Positions 10,604-37,739 of a stretch of DNA of 51,991 nt are shown here, in pieces. The DNA is from Candidatus Micrarchaeota archaeon (lineage in GTDB: Archaea; Micrarchaeota; Micrarchaeia; Anstonellales; Bilamarchaeaceae): NCBI GenBank assembly GCA_040757035.1, contig JBFLYM010000005.1, forward strand, positions 1 through 51,991. Direction: 5' to 3'. Under the pieces are notes generated by a model that saw only the letters and a list, made by a program, of their open reading frames with translations, was not told where the DNA came from and ran no database searches. A program made the translations under genes and the position numbers. Each line of letters starts with the position of its first letter. Positions within the stretch are counted from its first letter, which is position 1.

Positions 10604-11830
10604 ATGATTTTCGCGCAAAAACATATCCCAAAAAAGATTGATGATGTTGCTGGAAATGATGAAGCAAAATCGCACATAAAGCAATGGATTCTTAATTGGC
10701 TACGTGGCGTGCGGCAAAAACCATTGCTTATTTATGGACCGACCGGTATTGGCAAAACAACGATCGCTTACGCGCTTAAAGCAGAATTTGATCTTGAATT
10801 GATAGAGATAAATGCGAGCGATTTGCGCAACGCTGCGCAAATAGAAAAAATACTTGTGAATGCAGGATGTTCATTCTCGCTTTCCGGGAAAAACAAGCTT
10901 CTTTTAATTGATGATGTTGATGCGCTACAACGAGAAGATGTTGGTGGAGTGCGCGCAATCTCTACCGTACTAAAAAATGCCATGGTTCCAGTACTCCTCA
11001 CTGCTGAAAATATTTGGGATAAAAAAATTGCGGGAATAGTGAATGAAGCGCGTGCAATTGCGTTCAGGCGAGTATCAAAATCTTCGGTGTTGAAAGTACT
11101 GAAAAAAATCGCTTACGCTGAAAAGATTGAGATAGATGATACGAAATTAGAATTTATTGCGGAAAATTGCGGTGGAGATTTGCGCTCTGCGATAAATGAT
11201 CTGCAAGCCGGCATGAGCGGAATGCGCAATCGCGAAAAAGATGTTTTTGAACGAATGAAAATTGTTTTCAAATCAACATTATACAAAGAGGCAAGAGAAG
11301 CTGCTTGGGGCGATATTGAACACGAATTTCTCAAGCTCTGGATAGATGAAAACATCCCCTATGAATATGAAAAAAAAGACGATATCGCTTATGCATATAA
11401 CATACTTTCGCGTGCAGATATATTTGATGGACGCATAATTAATAGACAATACTGGGGATTTCTGCGTTATTCTAATGATCTTATGACCGCAGGCGTTTCA
11501 TTGGCGAAAAGAGAGCGATATATAAAATTTGTTCGTTATCAATTCCCTAACTATCTAAGACAAATGAGTGCTTCTTCTGCAAAAAGAGCGACACTTAAGC
11601 GAATAGGGCTTAAAATAGGCGCAAAGGTTCATTGCAACTGGAAACAATCTTTGTTGTATTTGAATGTAATAAAACAGATGCTTCTCGCAATTCCGGAGTG
11701 TGCTGAATTTTATTTGTTTGAAGATGATGAAGTGTCATTAATATGCGGACTTTCGGTTTTAGATTTAAAAAAAGAATATACCGATCCACTAAAAAAACGT
11801 GGATCGCATATACGCAACCTGTCGAGATAA
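10604..11830 (+). CDS. rfcL: Replication factor C large subunit
   Basis: GPTGIGKTT, IEINASDLR, GDLRSAINDLQ, WIDENIP; last codons come from the 97-bp repeat. Confidence 0.93.
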   Translation: MIFAQKHIPKKIDDVAGNDEAKSHIKQWILNWLRGVRQKPLLIYGPTGIGKTTIAYALKAEFDLELIEINASDLRNAAQIEKILVNAGCSFSLSGKNKLLLIDDVDALQREDVGGVRAISTVLKNAMVPVLLTAENIWDKKIAGIVNEARAIAFRRVSKSSVLKVLKKIAYAEKIEIDDTKLEFIAENCGGDLRSAINDLQAGMSGMRNREKDVFERMKIVFKSTLYKEAREAAWGDIEHEFLKLWIDENIPYEYEKKDDIAYAYNILSRADIFDGRIINRQYWGFLRYSNDLMTAGVSLAKRERYIKFVRYQFPNYLRQMSASSAKRATLKRIGLKIGAKVHCNWKQSLLYLNVIKQMLLAIPECAEFYLFEDDEVSLICGLSVLDLKKEYTDPLKKRGSHIRNLSR

Positions 11831-33517: not shown

Positions 33518-34696
33518 ATGGGAATTACTTTGTATTTAAATAGAAAAAACAATGAAATCGCGGTTAAAGAACCACAAGACGTAAGTTCGCTTGTAAATGG
33601 GTTTTATGGCGAAATGATCAAAGGAATAATTTATCTTCAGCCTGAAGAGGTCCTTTATTTAATAGATATACGAAATGCAAAATGCATTGATGAAGTTGGA
33701 AACACATGTATGTTCAATGACATTGCTACAATATTTCTGAAGAAAAAAAAATTACTCGCGCGCTATTTGACGTTCAAAGACTGGCGAGACAGGGGAATTA
33801 TTGCCCGCCTAAGTTGTGAAGCAAAAGGAAATTATGGTCGTTCGGTTGCAAAAAAATACAAAGGAGGAAATTTCAAAATTAATGCGTATTCTCTACAAGG
33901 CGTTTTCTTTTTTGATGATTTAATTACAATATTGGATGATGAAGCGAGCGGAAAAGAACTTTATGAAAAATATTGGATAGGGCAATTTGGAACGTACAAA
34001 GCGGCGCACCGCGGAAAAATCGCAAAACTAGATATTTATGAAACTATCTACATGCTCAAACACGGCAATCTCTCGCTCAAAAACGCAAAACTTGACGAAA
34101 TATTTTCCGAAGCCGATGATCGAATAAAATATTTTGGAGATATGTATTCTGTTTACGAGGATTGGAGAAATAAGGGTTATGTGCTCAAAACAGGTTTCAA
34201 ATTCGGAACCCATTTTAGGATTTATTTTCCTGGTGCGTCGCCAATAAAAGAGGATGATGAATGGATACATTCGCGACATGTTGTGCATATCTTTCCCAGA
34301 AAAAGTAAAATGCTAATTTCTGAATGGTCGCGCGCTATACGTGTTGCGCATTCTGTAAAAAAAACATTTATTCTTGCAATTCCTGGAAAAAAATTGGACA
34401 TAAAAATAAATCCGAAAAAACCAAAATCGGATTTTATACTTTATCATAGAAAAAAAGGTGGAATACAAACTCCAAAGGACGGCCAACCGCGGTTTTTTAT
34501 GTATTCGCTTTCAGAAGACGAATATCTTGGCGGCGAAGAGCTTGCTGAAGTTCTTTTTGAAGCAAAGCACTATGGTTTGGAAACGCTTTTAGCAATTACA
34601 GATAGAGAAAGTAGCGTTACTTATTATGTTGTAAAAAGAATAGAACTTCCTGCTAGCGATTACGAATATTACGAAATAGAATGGATGCAACCTTAA
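33518..34696 (+). CDS. endA: tRNA splicing endonuclease, three-unit (epsilon2/ARMAN-like)
   Basis: KTGFKFGTHFRIY (catalytic Tyr), HSRH, RVAHSVKK (catalytic Lys); extra N- and C-terminal units; 392 aa; WIGQFGTYK loop. Confidence 0.92.
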   Translation: MGITLYLNRKNNEIAVKEPQDVSSLVNGFYGEMIKGIIYLQPEEVLYLIDIRNAKCIDEVGNTCMFNDIATIFLKKKKLLARYLTFKDWRDRGIIARLSCEAKGNYGRSVAKKYKGGNFKINAYSLQGVFFFDDLITILDDEASGKELYEKYWIGQFGTYKAAHRGKIAKLDIYETIYMLKHGNLSLKNAKLDEIFSEADDRIKYFGDMYSVYEDWRNKGYVLKTGFKFGTHFRIYFPGASPIKEDDEWIHSRHVVHIFPRKSKMLISEWSRAIRVAHSVKKTFILAIPGKKLDIKINPKKPKSDFILYHRKKGGIQTPKDGQPRFFMYSLSEDEYLGGEELAEVLFEAKHYGLETLLAITDRESSVTYYVVKRIELPASDYEYYEIEWMQP

Positions 34697-34807: not shown

Positions 34808-35018
34808 TAGCGGGAGATGGAAATTCAGCTTCCAGCAAACGACGATTCTTTTGCTGTTTTGTTAGCTGTCTTGTTTGTCGTTTTTCAAATCTCGCAAGAT
34901 TTAAAAATTCTGTTTCTCGTTTTTGTTTTTCGGTTTTGAAATTTGGAATATAAAGCATTTGAACCAACGATCTCCGGGTTATGAGCCCGGCGGGCACTCC
35001 AAACTACCCTATCCCGCT
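34808..35018 (-). tRNA. Initiator tRNA-Met(CAT) with 136-nt intron at 59/60 (34822-34957)
   Basis: A1-U72 AGCGGGA/TCCCGCT, CCGGG-CT-CAT-AA-CCCGG; strict BHB TTCA/TGAA, bulges AA^T and TT^T, inner helix GCTT/AAGC. Confidence 0.93.
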
Positions 35019-35231
35019 ATTAATGATAATTAACAGTAAATCAGCAAATAAATAAAAAACCTCGCATTTCGGAATAAACTAGCCTTTATTCGAATTTGAG
35101 CTAGTGTTGTAAAAAATGTTCGGAATTACTGCAAAAGCGCAGAGTTAACTGTTTAAATATTTTTCTTGCGTGTAGTTAATTTTAATGGATCAGTATAATC
35201 AGTATAATGACCATATAACCAAGGTGAGAAA

Positions 35232-35738
35232 ATGGGATTACTTGATAAAATGCTTGATGATTTGTTGGGTGCTGAAAAAAAATCATATAAGGAAAAAATC
35301 TCTAAGGTATCTTCTTCAAGTTCAACTCCGGATTTGAATTCAAATACAGCTCCAAATTTGCAAAAAATACAAACTGCTCTTCCTATAAGCATGTCAATAA
35401 GATTCTTACCACTCAGACTCGCGGCAAAAAAGGATAATCGCGTTGACATGATTGTAACAATAACTAATAAAACCAACGAAAAACAGATCGTTTCATTTGA
35501 GGCACTGCTTCCAAAAACCGAAATGCTTGGTTTCAATAATACTATAATAATCAAACATGCTGAAAAAAAAGGTGTTTTAGAACCGAACGCACGCACTGAA
35601 TTTGCTATACCAATATATAGTACAACTCAGACCAAAGAAGGCAATTATACAATAAACGTTTCTGCGTATGTCCATTATCTAGATTACTCCAAGATAATAA
35701 ACTACATAAAAAGAACAATTTCGCTTAGAGTAGTTTAA
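35232..35738 (+). CDS. Hypothetical protein, probably beta-sandwich C-terminal domain
   Basis: 168-aa ORF with RBS GGTGA and genome-typical composition. Confidence 0.7.
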   Translation: MGLLDKMLDDLLGAEKKSYKEKISKVSSSSSTPDLNSNTAPNLQKIQTALPISMSIRFLPLRLAAKKDNRVDMIVTITNKTNEKQIVSFEALLPKTEMLGFNNTIIIKHAEKKGVLEPNARTEFAIPIYSTTQTKEGNYTINVSAYVHYLDYSKIINYIKRTISLRVV

Positions 35739-35778
35739 GATCTATATGCAATCTATATAATCTACGTTTTTTAGTGGA

Positions 35779-36036
35779 TTAATATAACTGTTTCTTTATC
35801 TCATCCAGAAGATTAGCGAGCGCTAAACCTTTTTCGGTTAATTTAACTATCTTTCTGTTTTTACATGTTTCTAAAATAACAAATCCTTTTTTTTCTAAAA
35901 TATTCATAAGCTTAGTTATGTATATGTATGTTGAATTAGATTGTCTGGCTATTTTTGAAAGATGCCAATTTACATTTTGATCTTTCAATAGAATAAATGC
36001 AGCAACCGATTTCTCTTTTAAGAAAAGCATGAGCAT
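35779..36036 (-). CDS. Small winged helix-turn-helix regulator
   Basis: LSKIARQSNSTYIYITKLMNILEKKGFV...VKLTEKG. Confidence 0.82.
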   Translation of the reverse strand: MLMLFLKEKSVAAFILLKDQNVNWHLSKIARQSNSTYIYITKLMNILEKKGFVILETCKNRKIVKLTEKGLALANLLDEIKKQLY

Positions 36037-36065
36037 ATTGGTGCGAATGGATTTATAAAACTTAA

Positions 36066-37739
36066 GTGAAATTATCGTTCATGACTTCTTTTGATAAATT
36101 TCATCTTCAAAAAATTATAGGTACTAATAGAAGTAATGATAATAAATACATAAAAATAGAATTGCCGCTTGTAGATTGCAATGGCAAAGCAGAAAAGTAT
36201 TTTGCTTTCGTTGAATTAGGCAAAACATTGCAGGACGAAATTTACCGTGTATTTCATGAAGATTCGCGCGGTCAATGCGTTCTCGCTACTTCTGTTATTG
36301 AAGGAAAAAATAGGACGTACATTCAAAAAATAGAATTCAATGGAACAGAATTCCAAAACATTCAAGTATATCCAATTCTTGAAAATTCAAGAGAGTATGG
36401 TCTTCCTTATGTAATAGTAAACGGCAAAGCCTATTTTCCTGGAGCAGATGAATTGAAAATTTCGCAGGATTTGGTGCGTATTGGCATTCAGGATGATACG
36501 CAATATGGCACTCAAGACCTCCCAGATTACATAAGATTTCATGGTGGTGGATGTTGTCCACTCACTGAACAAAAATCACTTGAACTCAAACTTGATAGAT
36601 GGAATACGATAACCGAATTAGAACTCAGTGCTTATAATGCAAATAATCTGCTAAATAATCTAAATTTTGATACAAATTTTGATATTTTTGATGTAAATTT
36701 TGATACAAATTTTAATATAGCAAAAGAGGAGCCTCCTCTTTCTTTTATACATGAATTGTCTGCTCTATCAATCTACCGGTCGCAATACGATAATGATGAA
36801 AGAGAATCATATTCAACAGATAGTACTGAAGGAATACCAGCAGTCACTATAAATAGTACAAGATTAAGGAGAGCTAGGAAAGGTAATGGGATAATACTAA
36901 CAGAAGCAGCAGTAAACGCAACAATGCAAGCTAATTTAACTACGTTGATGAGTGATACTGATGTTATTGAAGCAATAAACAAAGGCGAAATTGGAATAAA
37001 ACCTTTTGACAAAATAATAGACAAAAAAAATAAAACGGGCCCGAAGGGATTTTCAACCGAACCGCGGAAGGGGAAACCCCCTCCCCCAGTTTTTCTTTTT
37101 GGGGTTGATACAGATCTTGATCTTGTTGTATTATCATCAACATCTGTTTTTCTTTGGGGTGGACCCCCCAAACCTTTCTTTTTTTTAAAAAGAAAGGGAT
37201 ATGGGTTTGAACCCTCGACCTACGGATATCCTCGTTGCTTCCTAGGTAGTATTTCAAATTCTGCGCGTCGGACGCTTGAAACGCGAAACCAACGATCAAA
37301 AACTCAAAATCCAAAATCCAAAATCCAAAATCCAAAATGCGGAACTGAATCTTCAGATCTCGCAAGATTTGGAAAAATAGCAAACGAACCATTGTTTGCT
37401 GGAAGCATAAAAGTCCGCCGCTCTGGCCAAGCTGAGCTACAGGCCCTAAATAAAGGCACTAAAGATACAAGTAAAGGATATAATACAACAGAAATAAATA
37501 AAAAGGGTAATAATTCTTACAATGCTTTTGATATTCTCAAAACTTTGAAACAAAAAAAAGAAGCAGGAAAAAAGATAAAGAAGAAGACAGAAGAAAAAAC
37601 AGAAATCGCTTTTTTATCTCCGCATGAAAAAGCGCATCGGAATACAGCTACTCATTGGACTATCGCCACTATACCCGTTATATCTTTTTCCACCGCGTTT
37701 CAGAATCATCATCTTCCAGTGAAATACCAAATTGCTTAA
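36066..37739 (+). CDS. Hypothetical protein; frame stays open through a dcd fragment and antisense across tRNA-Lys
   Basis: First ~290 aa look like genuine coding sequence; the remainder is translated repeat and tRNA sequence, so the true end is uncertain. Confidence 0.5.
   Translation: MKLSFMTSFDKFHLQKIIGTNRSNDNKYIKIELPLVDCNGKAEKYFAFVELGKTLQDEIYRVFHEDSRGQCVLATSVIEGKNRTYIQKIEFNGTEFQNIQVYPILENSREYGLPYVIVNGKAYFPGADELKISQDLVRIGIQDDTQYGTQDLPDYIRFHGGGCCPLTEQKSLELKLDRWNTITELELSAYNANNLLNNLNFDTNFDIFDVNFDTNFNIAKEEPPLSFIHELSALSIYRSQYDNDERESYSTDSTEGIPAVTINSTRLRRARKGNGIILTEAAVNATMQANLTTLMSDTDVIEAINKGEIGIKPFDKIIDKKNKTGPKGFSTEPRKGKPPPPVFLFGVDTDLDLVVLSSTSVFLWGGPPKPFFFLKRKGYGFEPSTYGYPRCFLGSISNSARRTLETRNQRSKTQNPKSKIQNPKCGTESSDLARFGKIANEPLFAGSIKVRRSGQAELQALNKGTKDTSKGYNTTEINKKGNNSYNAFDILKTLKQKKEAGKKIKKKTEEKTEIAFLSPHEKAHRNTATHWTIATIPVISFSTAFQNHHLPVKYQIA
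36945..37014 (+). repeat. 70-bp identical copy of the dcd 5' region (29586-29655)
   Basis: TTGATGAGTGATACTGATG...CCTTTTGACAAAA at both sites. Confidence 0.93.
37036..37446 (-). tRNA. tRNA-Lys(TTT) with introns at 37/38 (37228-37407, 180 nt) and 59/60 (37050-37205, 156 nt)
   Basis: GGGCCTG/CGGGCCC acceptor, GCTC/GAGC D stem, GCGGA-CT-TTT-A^A-TCCGT, GAGGG-TTCAAA^T-CCCTT; BHB central helices CTTT/GAGG and TTCA/TGAA. Confidence 0.9.
37056..37204 (-). mobile_element. Hairpin element (core B, end type 1) forming the tRNA-Lys T-loop intron
   Basis: Plus strand ACCGAACCGCGG...GGGATATGG; closely matches 39455-39607. Confidence 0.88.

Follow-up and report, generated by a model that had tools for sequence, protein, structure and literature searches.

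How does one and the same repeat come to lie inside two tRNA genes in opposite directions? The question is raised by the window analysed here, the whole 51,991-nt stretch of the Candidatus Micrarchaeota archaeon contig JBFLYM010000005.1 (assembly GCA_040757035.1, positions 1 to 51,991), in which introns of the initiator tRNA (iMet) and of tRNA-Lys(UUU) share one repeat element. Read in reverse complement, the 136-nt intron at position 59/60 of iMet corresponds to the first ~100 nt, from the 5' end, of the 180-nt intron at position 37/38 of tRNA-Lys. The best explanation is that a non-coding DNA repeat with two hairpins is dispersed and common in the genus and family of this archaeon, and that the shared sequence represents a lineage-specific subfamily of it. 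We regard it as moderately probable that copies of this dispersed repeat landed, either way round, in tRNA genes or in mini-introns of older date.

The two host genes and their splice junctions

In the unspliced window, the iMet and Lys genes are missed by ARAGORN in default mode and by Rfam at gathering score. Their exon/intron models were therefore built by hand and then checked with ARAGORN on the spliced forms. The features are as follows, in window coordinates.

33518..34696, plus strand: gene of a 392-aa tRNA splicing endonuclease of the three-unit (ε2) type, directly upstream of iMet
34808..34821, minus: tRNA-iMet exon 2 (T60, 3' strand of the T-stem, 3' strand of the acceptor, discriminator A), from the ARAGORN call on the spliced form
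34821..34831, minus: 3' half of the iMet bulge-helix-bulge (BHB), from sequence reading and a constrained fold
34821-34823, minus: bulge TTT of the iMet motif, by sequence reading
34822..34957, minus: iMet T-loop (59/60) intron, 136 nt, body formed by the element in antisense (inverted alignments, covariance model)
34824-34827, minus: TGAA of the iMet central helix, pairing with T-loop TTCA, by sequence reading
34828-34831, minus: AAGC, 3' strand of the iMet closing helix, by sequence reading
34834..34855, plus (element orientation): hairpin 1 of the iMet intron, by alignment of copies
34887..34902, plus: hairpin 2 of the iMet intron, a palindrome with RNA loop UGCG, by alignment
34953..34956, minus: GCTT, 5' strand of the iMet intron-closing helix (sequence and fold)
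34958..35018, minus: tRNA-iMet(CAT) exon 1, tRNA positions 1-59; spliced form called by ARAGORN as tRNA-Met(cat), 75 nt
37036..37049, minus: tRNA-Lys exon 3 (ARAGORN, spliced form)
37050..37205, minus: Lys intron 2, at 59/60, 156 nt, of a different and very abundant repeat family (most of the 77 genome matches of the Lys gene region)
37206..37227, minus: tRNA-Lys exon 2 (ARAGORN, spliced form)
37228..37407, minus: Lys intron 1, at 37/38, 180 nt, element in sense (alignments, nhmmer, covariance model)
37237..37242, minus: GGAAGC, 3' terminal inverted repeat of Lys intron 1, partner GCTTCC at 37401-37406 (MFE fold)
37305..37338, minus: 7-mer tandem array in the T/G-rich tail of Lys intron 1 (tandem-repeat search)
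37355..37370, minus: hairpin 2 of Lys intron 1, loop UGCG (fold and alignment)
37379..37400, minus: hairpin 1 of Lys intron 1 (fold and alignment)
37408..37446, minus: tRNA-Lys(TTT) exon 1; spliced form called by ARAGORN as tRNA-Lys(ttt), 75 nt

The outer bounds given in the initial annotation proved exact: on the minus strand, which carries both genes, the iMet intron ends with base 34822 and Lys intron 1 begins with base 37407. The Lys gene region has 77 matches within its own genome, mostly to Lys intron 2, which lies outside our main finding.

Two more copies of the element occur in this genome, in tRNA-Leu(GAG) and tRNA-Leu(UAA), and in-silico removal of the introns turns all four host genes into canonical tRNAs by ARAGORN: Met(cat) and Lys(ttt) of 75 nt each, Leu(gag) and Leu(taa) of 86 nt each. 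When run without its intron mode the same program calls only 6 tRNAs in the whole genome, none of them one of the four hosts. At its junction iMet has a strict 3-4-3 BHB, in which the T-stem is followed by TTCA/TGAA, flanked by bulges AAT and TTT, and then by GCTT/AAGC; when folding is constrained to this motif the energy is -23.5 kcal/mol, 1.8 above the MFE of -25.3. Relaxed BHBs, present in the respective MFE folds, are seen in Lys (CTTT/GAGG with two G·U pairs and bulges of 2-3 nt) and in the two Leu genes (GGTC/GACC, bulge AAA). The GCTT/AAGC closing helix that had been proposed for both window introns forms in iMet, and its counterpart in Lys is the longer GCTTCC/GGAAGC, paired in the MFE fold. 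A genome search returns a single iMet match in the assembly, so this sole initiator tRNA gene must be processed, and from the sequence we infer that these introns are excised.

The machinery for excision is encoded in the same genome. The endonuclease adjoining iMet matches PDB 4fz2 chain A over its full length (E 3e-138) and carries the Pfam domains tRNA_int_endo and tRNA_int_endo_N, and an RtcB ligase gene is present on contig C23. According to the available text of the ARMAN-2 study, the ε2 enzyme of that organism cuts both strict and relaxed BHBs in vitro, a 59/60 intron included (PMC3239211).

Homology in opposite orientations

That the antisense of the iMet intron aligns with the sense of the Lys intron was suggested in the initial annotation and is borne out statistically. 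The local score is 63, as compared with 20.8±3.6 (maximum 39) for dinucleotide shuffles, and was reached by 0 of 1000 shuffles (z 11.8); a second run of the same inverted comparison gave z 13.3, again with none of 500 shuffles reaching the score. The alignment spans positions 2-98 of the Lys intron and 7-126 of the 136 positions of the iMet intron, with 77 of 120 columns identical (~64%). A covariance model detects the element in the iMet intron on the plus strand, at 34824-34935 (E 6.6e-19 with model R1, 3.5e-11 with model R2), the iMet gene itself being on the minus strand; the match to the Lys intron has E 3.2e-20.

The two Leu copies, which came out of the genome-wide search that had been called for, lie on another contig in the D-loops, both in sense. 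The iMet intron matches each of them in inverted orientation only (z 8.7 in both cases, 0/500 shuffles), whereas the Lys, Leu(GAG) and Leu(UAA) copies match one another in the same orientation only (z 6.6-19.4). A same-orientation score of 39 between iMet and Lys comes from the palindromic hairpin 2 alone, and this signal vanishes against Leu(UAA), where hairpin 2 has diverged and 118 of 500 shuffles reach the score. In the iMet copy the order of the modules is reversed, and the loop of hairpin 1 is asymmetric. The inversion is real, end to end.

A chance likeness between low-complexity, hairpin-rich, AT-rich introns, or an assembly artefact, is thus effectively refuted. Both introns are indeed T-rich or A-rich, and hairpin 2 gives a signal both ways, but the inverted score was never reached by shuffling, the hairpin 1 loop and the reversed module order have a direction, and the four copies are mutually consistent. 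As for an artefact, the two window copies are too diverged for assembly collapse, and their exons give valid tRNAs. One observation does count against our main reading: read as RNA, hairpin 2 has the loop UGCG in the Lys copy as well as in the inverted iMet copy, which simple inversion does not predict.

The homologous segment reaches as far as the closing helix, short of the splice sites. Both introns had been described as running on into T-rich repeats of ~7-mers. This holds for Lys, whose tail contains a perfect array of period 7 (4.9 copies, 100% matches, 37305-37338), and loosely for iMet, in which the tandem repeat has period 13 (2.2 copies, 86%, 34911-34938).

Distribution of the module and possible routes to the iMet site

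The shared core is a two-hairpin module consisting of TCCAG, hairpin 1, TGTCTCYCC, hairpin 2 and GARGATYC. By nhmmer and covariance model, the 985-kb genome has four strong copies, all within tRNA genes, and with model R2 all 7 module copies detected there fall inside tRNA introns. The element-bearing introns occupy three tRNA positions (the D-loop in both Leu genes, 37/38 in Lys and 59/60 in iMet) and are 97-180 nt long. Thus, one genome contains significantly similar introns in differing isotypes and positions, and the reverse-complemented iMet copy violates a shared orientation relative to the host tRNA. Short introns of paralogous genes, 20 nt in Lys(CUU) and 39 nt in Leu(CAA), resemble deletion derivatives, which suggests that part of the spread occurred by descent or gene conversion rather than by insertion. 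Other searches recovered little: a strict regular expression for the module had no match in this genome, an exact-pattern scan had none in metagenome contigs and one in genome contigs, in a Desulfotignum record, which we take as chance, and BLAST with the Lys intron against 40 relatives gave weak low-complexity matches only.

In relatives the module is widely dispersed. Model R1, for which the four copies of this genome were the sole input, has matches in 16 of 60 relatives at E<=0.1 (best: G007, 1.1e-7; G005, 2.9e-6; G004, 8.4e-6), and R2 finds 4-11 copies per genome in all eight genomes of the genus. Contexts in congeners include T-loop introns in sense (4 copies), the flank of an oppositely oriented tRNA at its 5' end (G003, G007) and the D-loop of a tRNA fragment lying beside an intact copy of that tRNA (G002). 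This last filled and empty pair shows a clean 49-nt insertion with no target duplication. Several other congener loci have no tRNA match by Rfam, which misses intron-rich tRNAs, so that apparently intergenic copies occur in sister species, though not in this genome. At two loci (L059, L066) the module stands antisense beside tRNA genes. Stop-to-stop open reading frames overlap many copies in GC-richer relatives; this comes from a rough table, which was excluded as evidence of coding context. The proposal that an intergenic copy in G003 is positionally orthologous to the iMet locus, raised by a similar N-terminus of the downstream open reading frame, was rejected, since tblastn revealed no synteny.

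Conservation of the stems raises the possibility that the module functions as a structured RNA, perhaps as a domain through which excised, circularised introns and small intergenic transcripts bind a protein or are stabilised. Its recurrence would then stem from selection on RNA genes and their duplication, and the iMet copy would be a by-product without function. Among 40 sequences, 94.4% of stem cells are paired and 158 cells have changed on both sides, as compared with 47.9±6.2 after shuffling (0/500) and 15-36 in slid controls; a set of 16 sequences agrees, with stems covarying across genera. Conservation extends to the single-stranded motifs, which are specific to one orientation; hairpin 2 often carries a UUCG-like tetraloop, a hint of selection at the RNA level; and outside iMet all seven intron copies with a known host are in sense. 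We nevertheless consider this explanation unlikely. The module has no Rfam match in the window (gathering score) or in 29 related loci (E<=1-5), its stems show no excess of G·U over A·C pairs (14 and 20, a count that is uninformative as a test of RNA- versus DNA-level selection), and some copies stand antisense to a neighbouring tRNA or, in iMet, inverted. Moreover, a function would leave arrival at new sites unexplained, and would thus complement DNA insertion rather than replace it.

How, then, did the element reach the iMet intron? The initial annotation had argued for insertion as DNA rather than reverse splicing, and most of the evidence agrees. Spread through RNA could proceed by reverse splicing of an excised intron into another pre-tRNA, or by its reverse transcription and integration of the cDNA; RtcB, present here, ligates excised archaeal introns into circles, and a double-stranded cDNA could integrate either way round. 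However, reverse splicing keeps orientation and therefore cannot yield an intron body in both orientations, no RVT_1 reverse transcriptase was found in this 95%-complete genome, and homology ends short of the splice sites. Together with the copies outside recognisable tRNAs in sister genomes, this leaves an RNA-mediated route very improbable. A rival is inversion in place: the element would have entered the iMet intron in sense, by whatever route, and recombination or replication template switching between its short terminal inverted repeats would afterwards have turned it round, the BHB at the base staying unchanged. Inverted repeats do bound the element (GCTT...AAGC in iMet, GCTTCC...GGAAGC in Lys), a flip would leave splicing intact because TGAA, which pairs with the exon, lies beyond these repeats, and every other intron copy seen is in sense. 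Yet the repeats measure only 4-6 bp, no sense-oriented copy was found at iMet 59/60 in 21 family genomes, and the antisense modules at L059 and L066 provide both orientations without local flipping; we judge a flip in place to be rather unlikely.

Orthologous tRNAs, to which the initial annotation had also pointed, include intron-free iMet and Lys genes in some congeners. The iMet 59/60 site is intron-free in 10 of 21 family genomes, congeners G004 and G005 among them, and has unrelated short introns in at least 10 of the 21. Among the Lys(UUU) genes, that of G005 has no intron at all, and those of G001 and G006 have none at 37/38. In iMet the 4-bp helix between exon and intron, TTCA/TGAA, falls outside the shared element, and the iMet mini-intron of G020 has a GCTTT start and a GAAGCTG-plus-4-nt end at the same offsets as the intron studied here. 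On the strength of the 12 positions shared with G020, the element may be nested in an older iMet mini-intron whose scaffold supplies GCTT/AAGC, and such nesting seems somewhat more likely than direct landing in the tRNA gene. Derivation of the intron from the other nine iMet 59/60 introns was rejected, the whole-intron alignments being not significant (same-orientation score against G020 reached by 170 of 500 shuffles; the best, G008, by 8 of 500). In metagenomes, a pattern running from the iMet anticodon to the T-loop found 37 loci, mostly from distant archaea, of which 36 have no post-T-loop intron and none represents a close relative.

According to the insertion model, which concerns both the DNA-level route and the order of events that we infer, the repeat would reach tRNA sites as DNA without regard to orientation, the iMet copy having arrived backwards. 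For splicing, the ε2 endonuclease encoded beside iMet, an enzyme of broad specificity, would require no more than a 4-bp exon-intron helix, the two bulges of 3 nt and, where the intron begins and ends, a closing helix. Since reverse complementation preserves Watson-Crick helices and everything else in the intron is loop, either orientation would be tolerated. The earlier idea that a self-pairing element makes a spliceable intron in either direction thus stands in part: the BHB tolerates orientation, but TTCA/TGAA of iMet lies outside the element and 59/60 mini-introns exist in the family.

The kind of element and comparison with known systems

As to the class of mobile element, multi-copy dispersal that includes apparently non-genic sites in genus genomes is a MITE-like trait. 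No direct repeat flanks any of the four copies in this genome as a target-site duplication, the terminal repeats are only 4-7 bp and differ by copy with their pairing kept (GCTTCC/GGAAGC, GTTTCAA/TTGAAAC, TCCATT/AATGGA), and the 5' flanks in element orientation (TTTTAT, AAATCT, GTCAAA, AATTCA, GGTAGA, GTTCAAA) contain no conserved target. No partner transposase end matching the module was found, and a classical MITE is not supported.

Elements of the IS200/IS605 type and their miniature PATE-type derivatives have hairpin-defined ends and need neither terminal inverted repeats nor target duplications. The module resembles them in being defined by hairpins, and in G020 the exact core of hairpin 1 is found in the left end of its only IS200-type tnpA, as well as in 13 other places. 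This genome has one intact tnpA. The module differs in having no conserved 5' tetranucleotide, and the tnpA/tnpB flanks of this genome are unlike it. A derivation of the whole module from IS200/IS605 ends was rejected, with one weak match in 29 tnpA loci and absence from the other 28, this genome's own among them, so that the link to IS200 may be taken only as a lead. The two window copies of opposite orientation are 2.4 kb apart, an arrangement unexpected for strand-specific insertion within one replichore. One may speculate that the two-hairpin module is mobile DNA, possibly moved in trans by an IS200-type single-strand transposase recognising hairpin 1, through which archaeal tRNA introns are seeded and enlarged, and that insertions in either orientation would be spliced out at once because the endonuclease reads only the two-fold-symmetric helix-bulge motif at the intron base. 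We hold this scenario as possible but doubtful. If it is true, tRNA genes and existing introns would be safe landing sites, and the long-unexplained gain of archaeal tRNA introns would have a concrete, testable route.

Families of transposed tRNA introns reportedly go back, through the papers that cite it, to a 2010 Mol Biol Evol study by Fujishima. In the available text on the Thermoproteales type, near-identical introns occur across isotypes and positions within one genome, and a DNA-level route is supposed (PMC4090602). The present case differs in phylum and endonuclease type, in having one reverse-complemented member, and in that the module is also found outside introns in sister genomes; that shared orientation is a defining trait of the published families is our assumption. 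Prokaryotic MITEs and small hairpin repeats (PMC11602168) are alike in being small, non-coding, multi-copy, hairpin-forming and largely restricted to a genus or family, and in lying between genes in both orientations, but unlike them the module has no target-site duplication, its short terminal repeats covary rather than being conserved, and no transposase end matches it.

The closest system is that of the BHB introns of ARMAN-2 (Candidatus Micrarchaeum acidiphilum; Fujishima et al. 2011, PMC3239211, PDB 4fz2), from the same phylum-level lineage and with the same endonuclease architecture. As far as the available part of that report goes, the likeness extends to introns at 59/60, at 37/38 and in the D-loop, several per gene, with strict and relaxed BHBs; the substrates there are short (13 and 25 nt) and no repeat families are described, whereas here a dispersed repeat, one copy of it inverted, makes up introns of 97-180 nt. 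In the literature surveyed, which represents the 2010 Mol Biol Evol study through papers that cite it, neither homologous tRNA introns in reverse complement nor BHB introns derived from repeats were reported. The case lends itself to experiment: the endonuclease is encoded by one gene, the tRNA is essential and single-copy, and the 136-nt intron can be flipped in vitro. A 2026 preprint that tested copying, mobile elements and reverse transcription in Asgard archaea left the route of intron arrival open (section 2.5). To the debate on the origin of archaeal tRNA introns, an intron body found in both orientations adds evidence based on orientation, and its occurrence as a dispersed repeat outside introns in sister genomes names a candidate donor. 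The forward and the backward copy together suggest that the introns of the two tRNA genes were built or enlarged by DNA landing in either direction.

Predicted tRNA introns beside a splicing endonuclease gene

The source genome (985 kb in 50 contigs, G+C about 35%, with the window as its contig C5) is metagenome-assembled, as are the other genomes studied, and splicing is a prediction throughout. ARAGORN called 6 tRNA genes in this genome without its intron mode and 16 with canonical introns allowed, and it detected no tRNA gene in the window. When exons were joined by coordinates, the iMet gene, the Lys gene and two Leu genes on contig C12 were all called by ARAGORN as full tRNAs. The assembly holds no iMet gene other than that of the window.

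Features of the window and module copies on contig C12
33518-34696, plus strand, three-unit ε2 splicing endonuclease gene, 392 aa (Pfam; full-length match to the ARMAN-2 enzyme, PDB 4fz2, E 3e-138)
34808-34821, minus strand, iMet exon 2
34822-34957, minus strand, iMet intron, 136 nt, T-loop 59/60
34958-35018, minus strand, iMet exon 1
37036-37049, minus strand, tRNA-Lys(UUU) exon 3
37050-37205, minus strand, tRNA-Lys(UUU) intron 2, 156 nt, at 59/60, of a separate, very abundant repeat family
37206-37227, minus strand, tRNA-Lys(UUU) exon 2
37228-37407, minus strand, tRNA-Lys(UUU) intron 1, 180 nt, at 37/38
37408-37446, minus strand, tRNA-Lys(UUU) exon 1
C12:577-677, sense (Lys) orientation, copy in the tRNA-Leu(UAA) D-loop intron
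C12:17799-17895, sense orientation, copy in the tRNA-Leu(GAG) D-loop intron

A gap of 111 bp separates the end of the endonuclease gene from the 3' end of the iMet gene, which is on the opposite strand. According to PMC3239211, the ARMAN-2 ε2 enzyme cleaves both strict and relaxed bulge-helix-bulge (BHB) motifs, a 59/60 intron among them. The genome also encodes RtcB, and contig C4 has another, smaller endonuclease-like ORF of 168 aa at 10612-10854.

Other repeats and a long open frame were noted in the window and elsewhere in the genome. The family of Lys intron 2 has internal tandem units of ~50 nt; the Lys gene region has 77 matches in the genome, many of them at contig ends, so that this family probably breaks the assembly. 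A 557-codon open frame (36066-37739, plus strand) runs antisense through the entire Lys gene and both introns. Its first 318 residues had no Pfam match, and its 3' part is probably non-coding, which makes the frame a trap for gene callers. The hairpin GAACGA-N4-TCGTTC is found at 19 places in the genome, in both loop orientations, and twice as a pair 68 nt apart (C5:27326 and 27394; C35:9971 and 10039).

The inverted element and its predicted splice sites

The initial annotation held that the antisense of the iMet intron aligns with the sense of the Lys 37/38 intron, and the alignment is indeed far beyond chance, with a score of 63 against 20.8±3.6 for dinucleotide shuffles, none of 1000 of which reached 63. 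It has 77 identities in 120 columns and spans nearly the full iMet intron, whereas in the same orientation the alignment is confined to the palindromic hairpin 2. The bounds of the annotated stretch coincide exactly with intron limits, 34822 with the end of one intron and 37407 with the start of another. A genome-wide search had been proposed, and one run with a profile added two copies, in the D-loop introns of Leu(GAG) and Leu(UAA), making exactly four strong copies. Pairwise, iMet matched each of the other three in inverted orientation only (z 8.7-13.3, 0/500 shuffles), and those three matched one another in the same orientation only (z 6.6-19.4). In the iMet copy the module runs in reverse order and carries the complement of hairpin 1's asymmetric loop, so that it is a true inversion of the Lys/Leu element and not a case of hairpin self-similarity. 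The T-rich ~7-mer repeats described for both introns form a perfect array in Lys but are only loose in iMet.

As RNA, the hairpin 2 tetraloop is UGCG in the Lys copy (37352-37370) and again in the inverted iMet copy (34884-34902), whereas plain inversion would predict CGCA in iMet. Possible causes are a pair of transitions, short-patch conversion involving the two palindromic copies, which are separated by 2.4 kb, or selection in favour of a UNCG-type loop.

The iMet junction forms a strict 3-4-3 BHB, in which TTCA of the T-loop pairs with TGAA of the intron, the bulges are AAT and TTT, and GCTT/AAGC makes the closing helix, the role that had been claimed for it and that the predicted fold upholds for iMet. 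The fold constrained to this BHB lies 1.8 kcal/mol above the MFE. The Lys and Leu junctions are relaxed motifs, present in the MFE folds. In every copy the homologous segment stops at the closing helix, the sequence of which varies from copy to copy with pairing kept, and the 4-nt exon-pairing strand lies outside the segment and is locus-specific.

The module in other introns and other genomes

Model R1, a covariance model based on nothing but the four copies of the source genome, matched 16 of 60 relatives, and its best matches fall in congeners. A second model, from 16 matches (R2), found 4-11 copies per genome in all eight genus genomes. Its seven copies in the source genome are the four strong ones and three sense-oriented ones within another T-loop intron type. 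In this third type a GC-rich hairpin comes first and the module follows in sense; it occurs in Leu(CAA), Lys(CUU) and one further tRNA.

T-loop introns of the third type with the module, source genome
C18:7679-8100
C11:19900-20150
C16:3550-4110

The module consensus consists of TCCAG, hairpin 1, TGTCTCYCC, hairpin 2 and GARGATYC; the loop of hairpin 2 is often UUCG-like. The stems covary: among 40 sequences, paired cells make up 94.4%, with 158 both-side changes against 47.9±6.2 in shuffles (0/500) and 15-36 both-side-changed cells in slid controls; the alignments are model-fitted and hence biased to pairing, yet the aligned rows plainly show compensatory changes. The 16-sequence set agrees. 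That the module is a functional RNA is a rival reading, and one compatible with spread at the DNA level.

Further copies lie in sense orientation in T-loop introns of the congeners G007, G001 and G002 (two in the last). In G003 and in G007 the module's 5' end abuts position 1 of an opposite-strand tRNA, which in G003 is intact, so that the antisense module would be the immediate upstream sequence of that tRNA.

Modules abutting a tRNA
Locus L059 (G003:C12), 1428-1585
Locus L066 (G007:C13), 1419-1587

In G002, the D-loop of a 5' fragment of tRNA(CGT) (locus L079, contig C30, 190-450) is cleanly interrupted by a 49-nt copy of the module, and the fragment also holds a separate 24-nt insertion. 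Immediately downstream of it the same tRNA is present as an intact copy with no intron, giving a filled/empty pair, and comparison with this twin revealed no target duplication at the 49-nt insertion. Several module loci in G002-G005, G020, G022, G042 and G047 had no tRNA match in Rfam, which often misses intron-rich tRNAs, so this 'intergenic' class is provisional. A weak match ~20 nt past the 3' end of a 23S rRNA gene (L045, G017:C7, 1501-1596, E about 0.001-0.016) may be chance.

Both introns are missing in some congeners, as a survey of orthologues, proposed at the outset, made clear. Ten of the 21 family genomes lack an intron at the iMet 59/60 site, the congeners G004 and G005 among them, and at least 10 have one there, of several unrelated types, including a 33-34-nt type in congeners G002, G003 and G007. 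Lys(UUU) has no introns in G005 and no 37/38 intron in G001 and G006; at that site G003 has 16 nt and G004 has 68 nt. Long introns that carry the module are thus specific to the lineage of the source genome, although the sites are old and often occupied. The 42-nt iMet intron of G020 shares with that of the source genome a GCTTT start and a GAAGCTG+4 nt end at the same offsets, and their whole-intron alignment is not significant. This weakly suggests that GCTT/AAGC of iMet is part of an older mini-intron in which the element became nested.

Within the source genome, tRNA-Lys(CUU) (C11) has a 20-nt 37/38 intron that joins 14 nt from the start of the long Lys intron to 6 nt from its end, and tRNA-Leu(CAA) (C18) has a 39-nt D-loop intron lacking both hairpins, at a direct repeat found in the Leu(UAA) copy. 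Both look like deletion derivatives. Spread inside the Lys set and inside the Leu set was probably by descent or gene conversion, and another route is required only for moves among D-loop, anticodon loop and T-loop.

Candidate routes into tRNA genes

The most likely reading is that a dispersed DNA repeat entered tRNA genes, or short introns already there, in either orientation. The endonuclease would recognise the intron base only, and helices persist through reverse complementation, so that a backwards copy would be spliced like a forwards one. The inversion had been taken to imply insertion at the DNA level. In favour of this, reverse splicing cannot yield a copy that is inverted, and a search of the 95%-complete source genome found no reverse transcriptase. 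Inversion in place, between terminal repeats of 4-6 bp, is a rival reading. The repeat does not look like a classical MITE, with neither target duplication nor long conserved terminal repeats found.

The exact 16-nt core of hairpin 1 occurs 14 times in G020 (reversed control, 0), once within the left end of that genome's only IS200-type tnpA. The full module is missing at 28 of 29 tnpA loci, and the source genome has one intact tnpA, on contig C41, the flanks of which differ from the module. The link of hairpin 1 to IS200 is offered only as a lead.

The literature searched reports no reverse-complemented intron homologue and no BHB introns built from dispersed repeats. Reviews and a 2026 preprint give the arrival route of tRNA introns as unknown. 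A Caldiarchaeum study proposes integration of a recombinase-bearing element, and in Thermoproteales, according to papers that cite Fujishima 2010, similar introns sit at different positions of different tRNAs.
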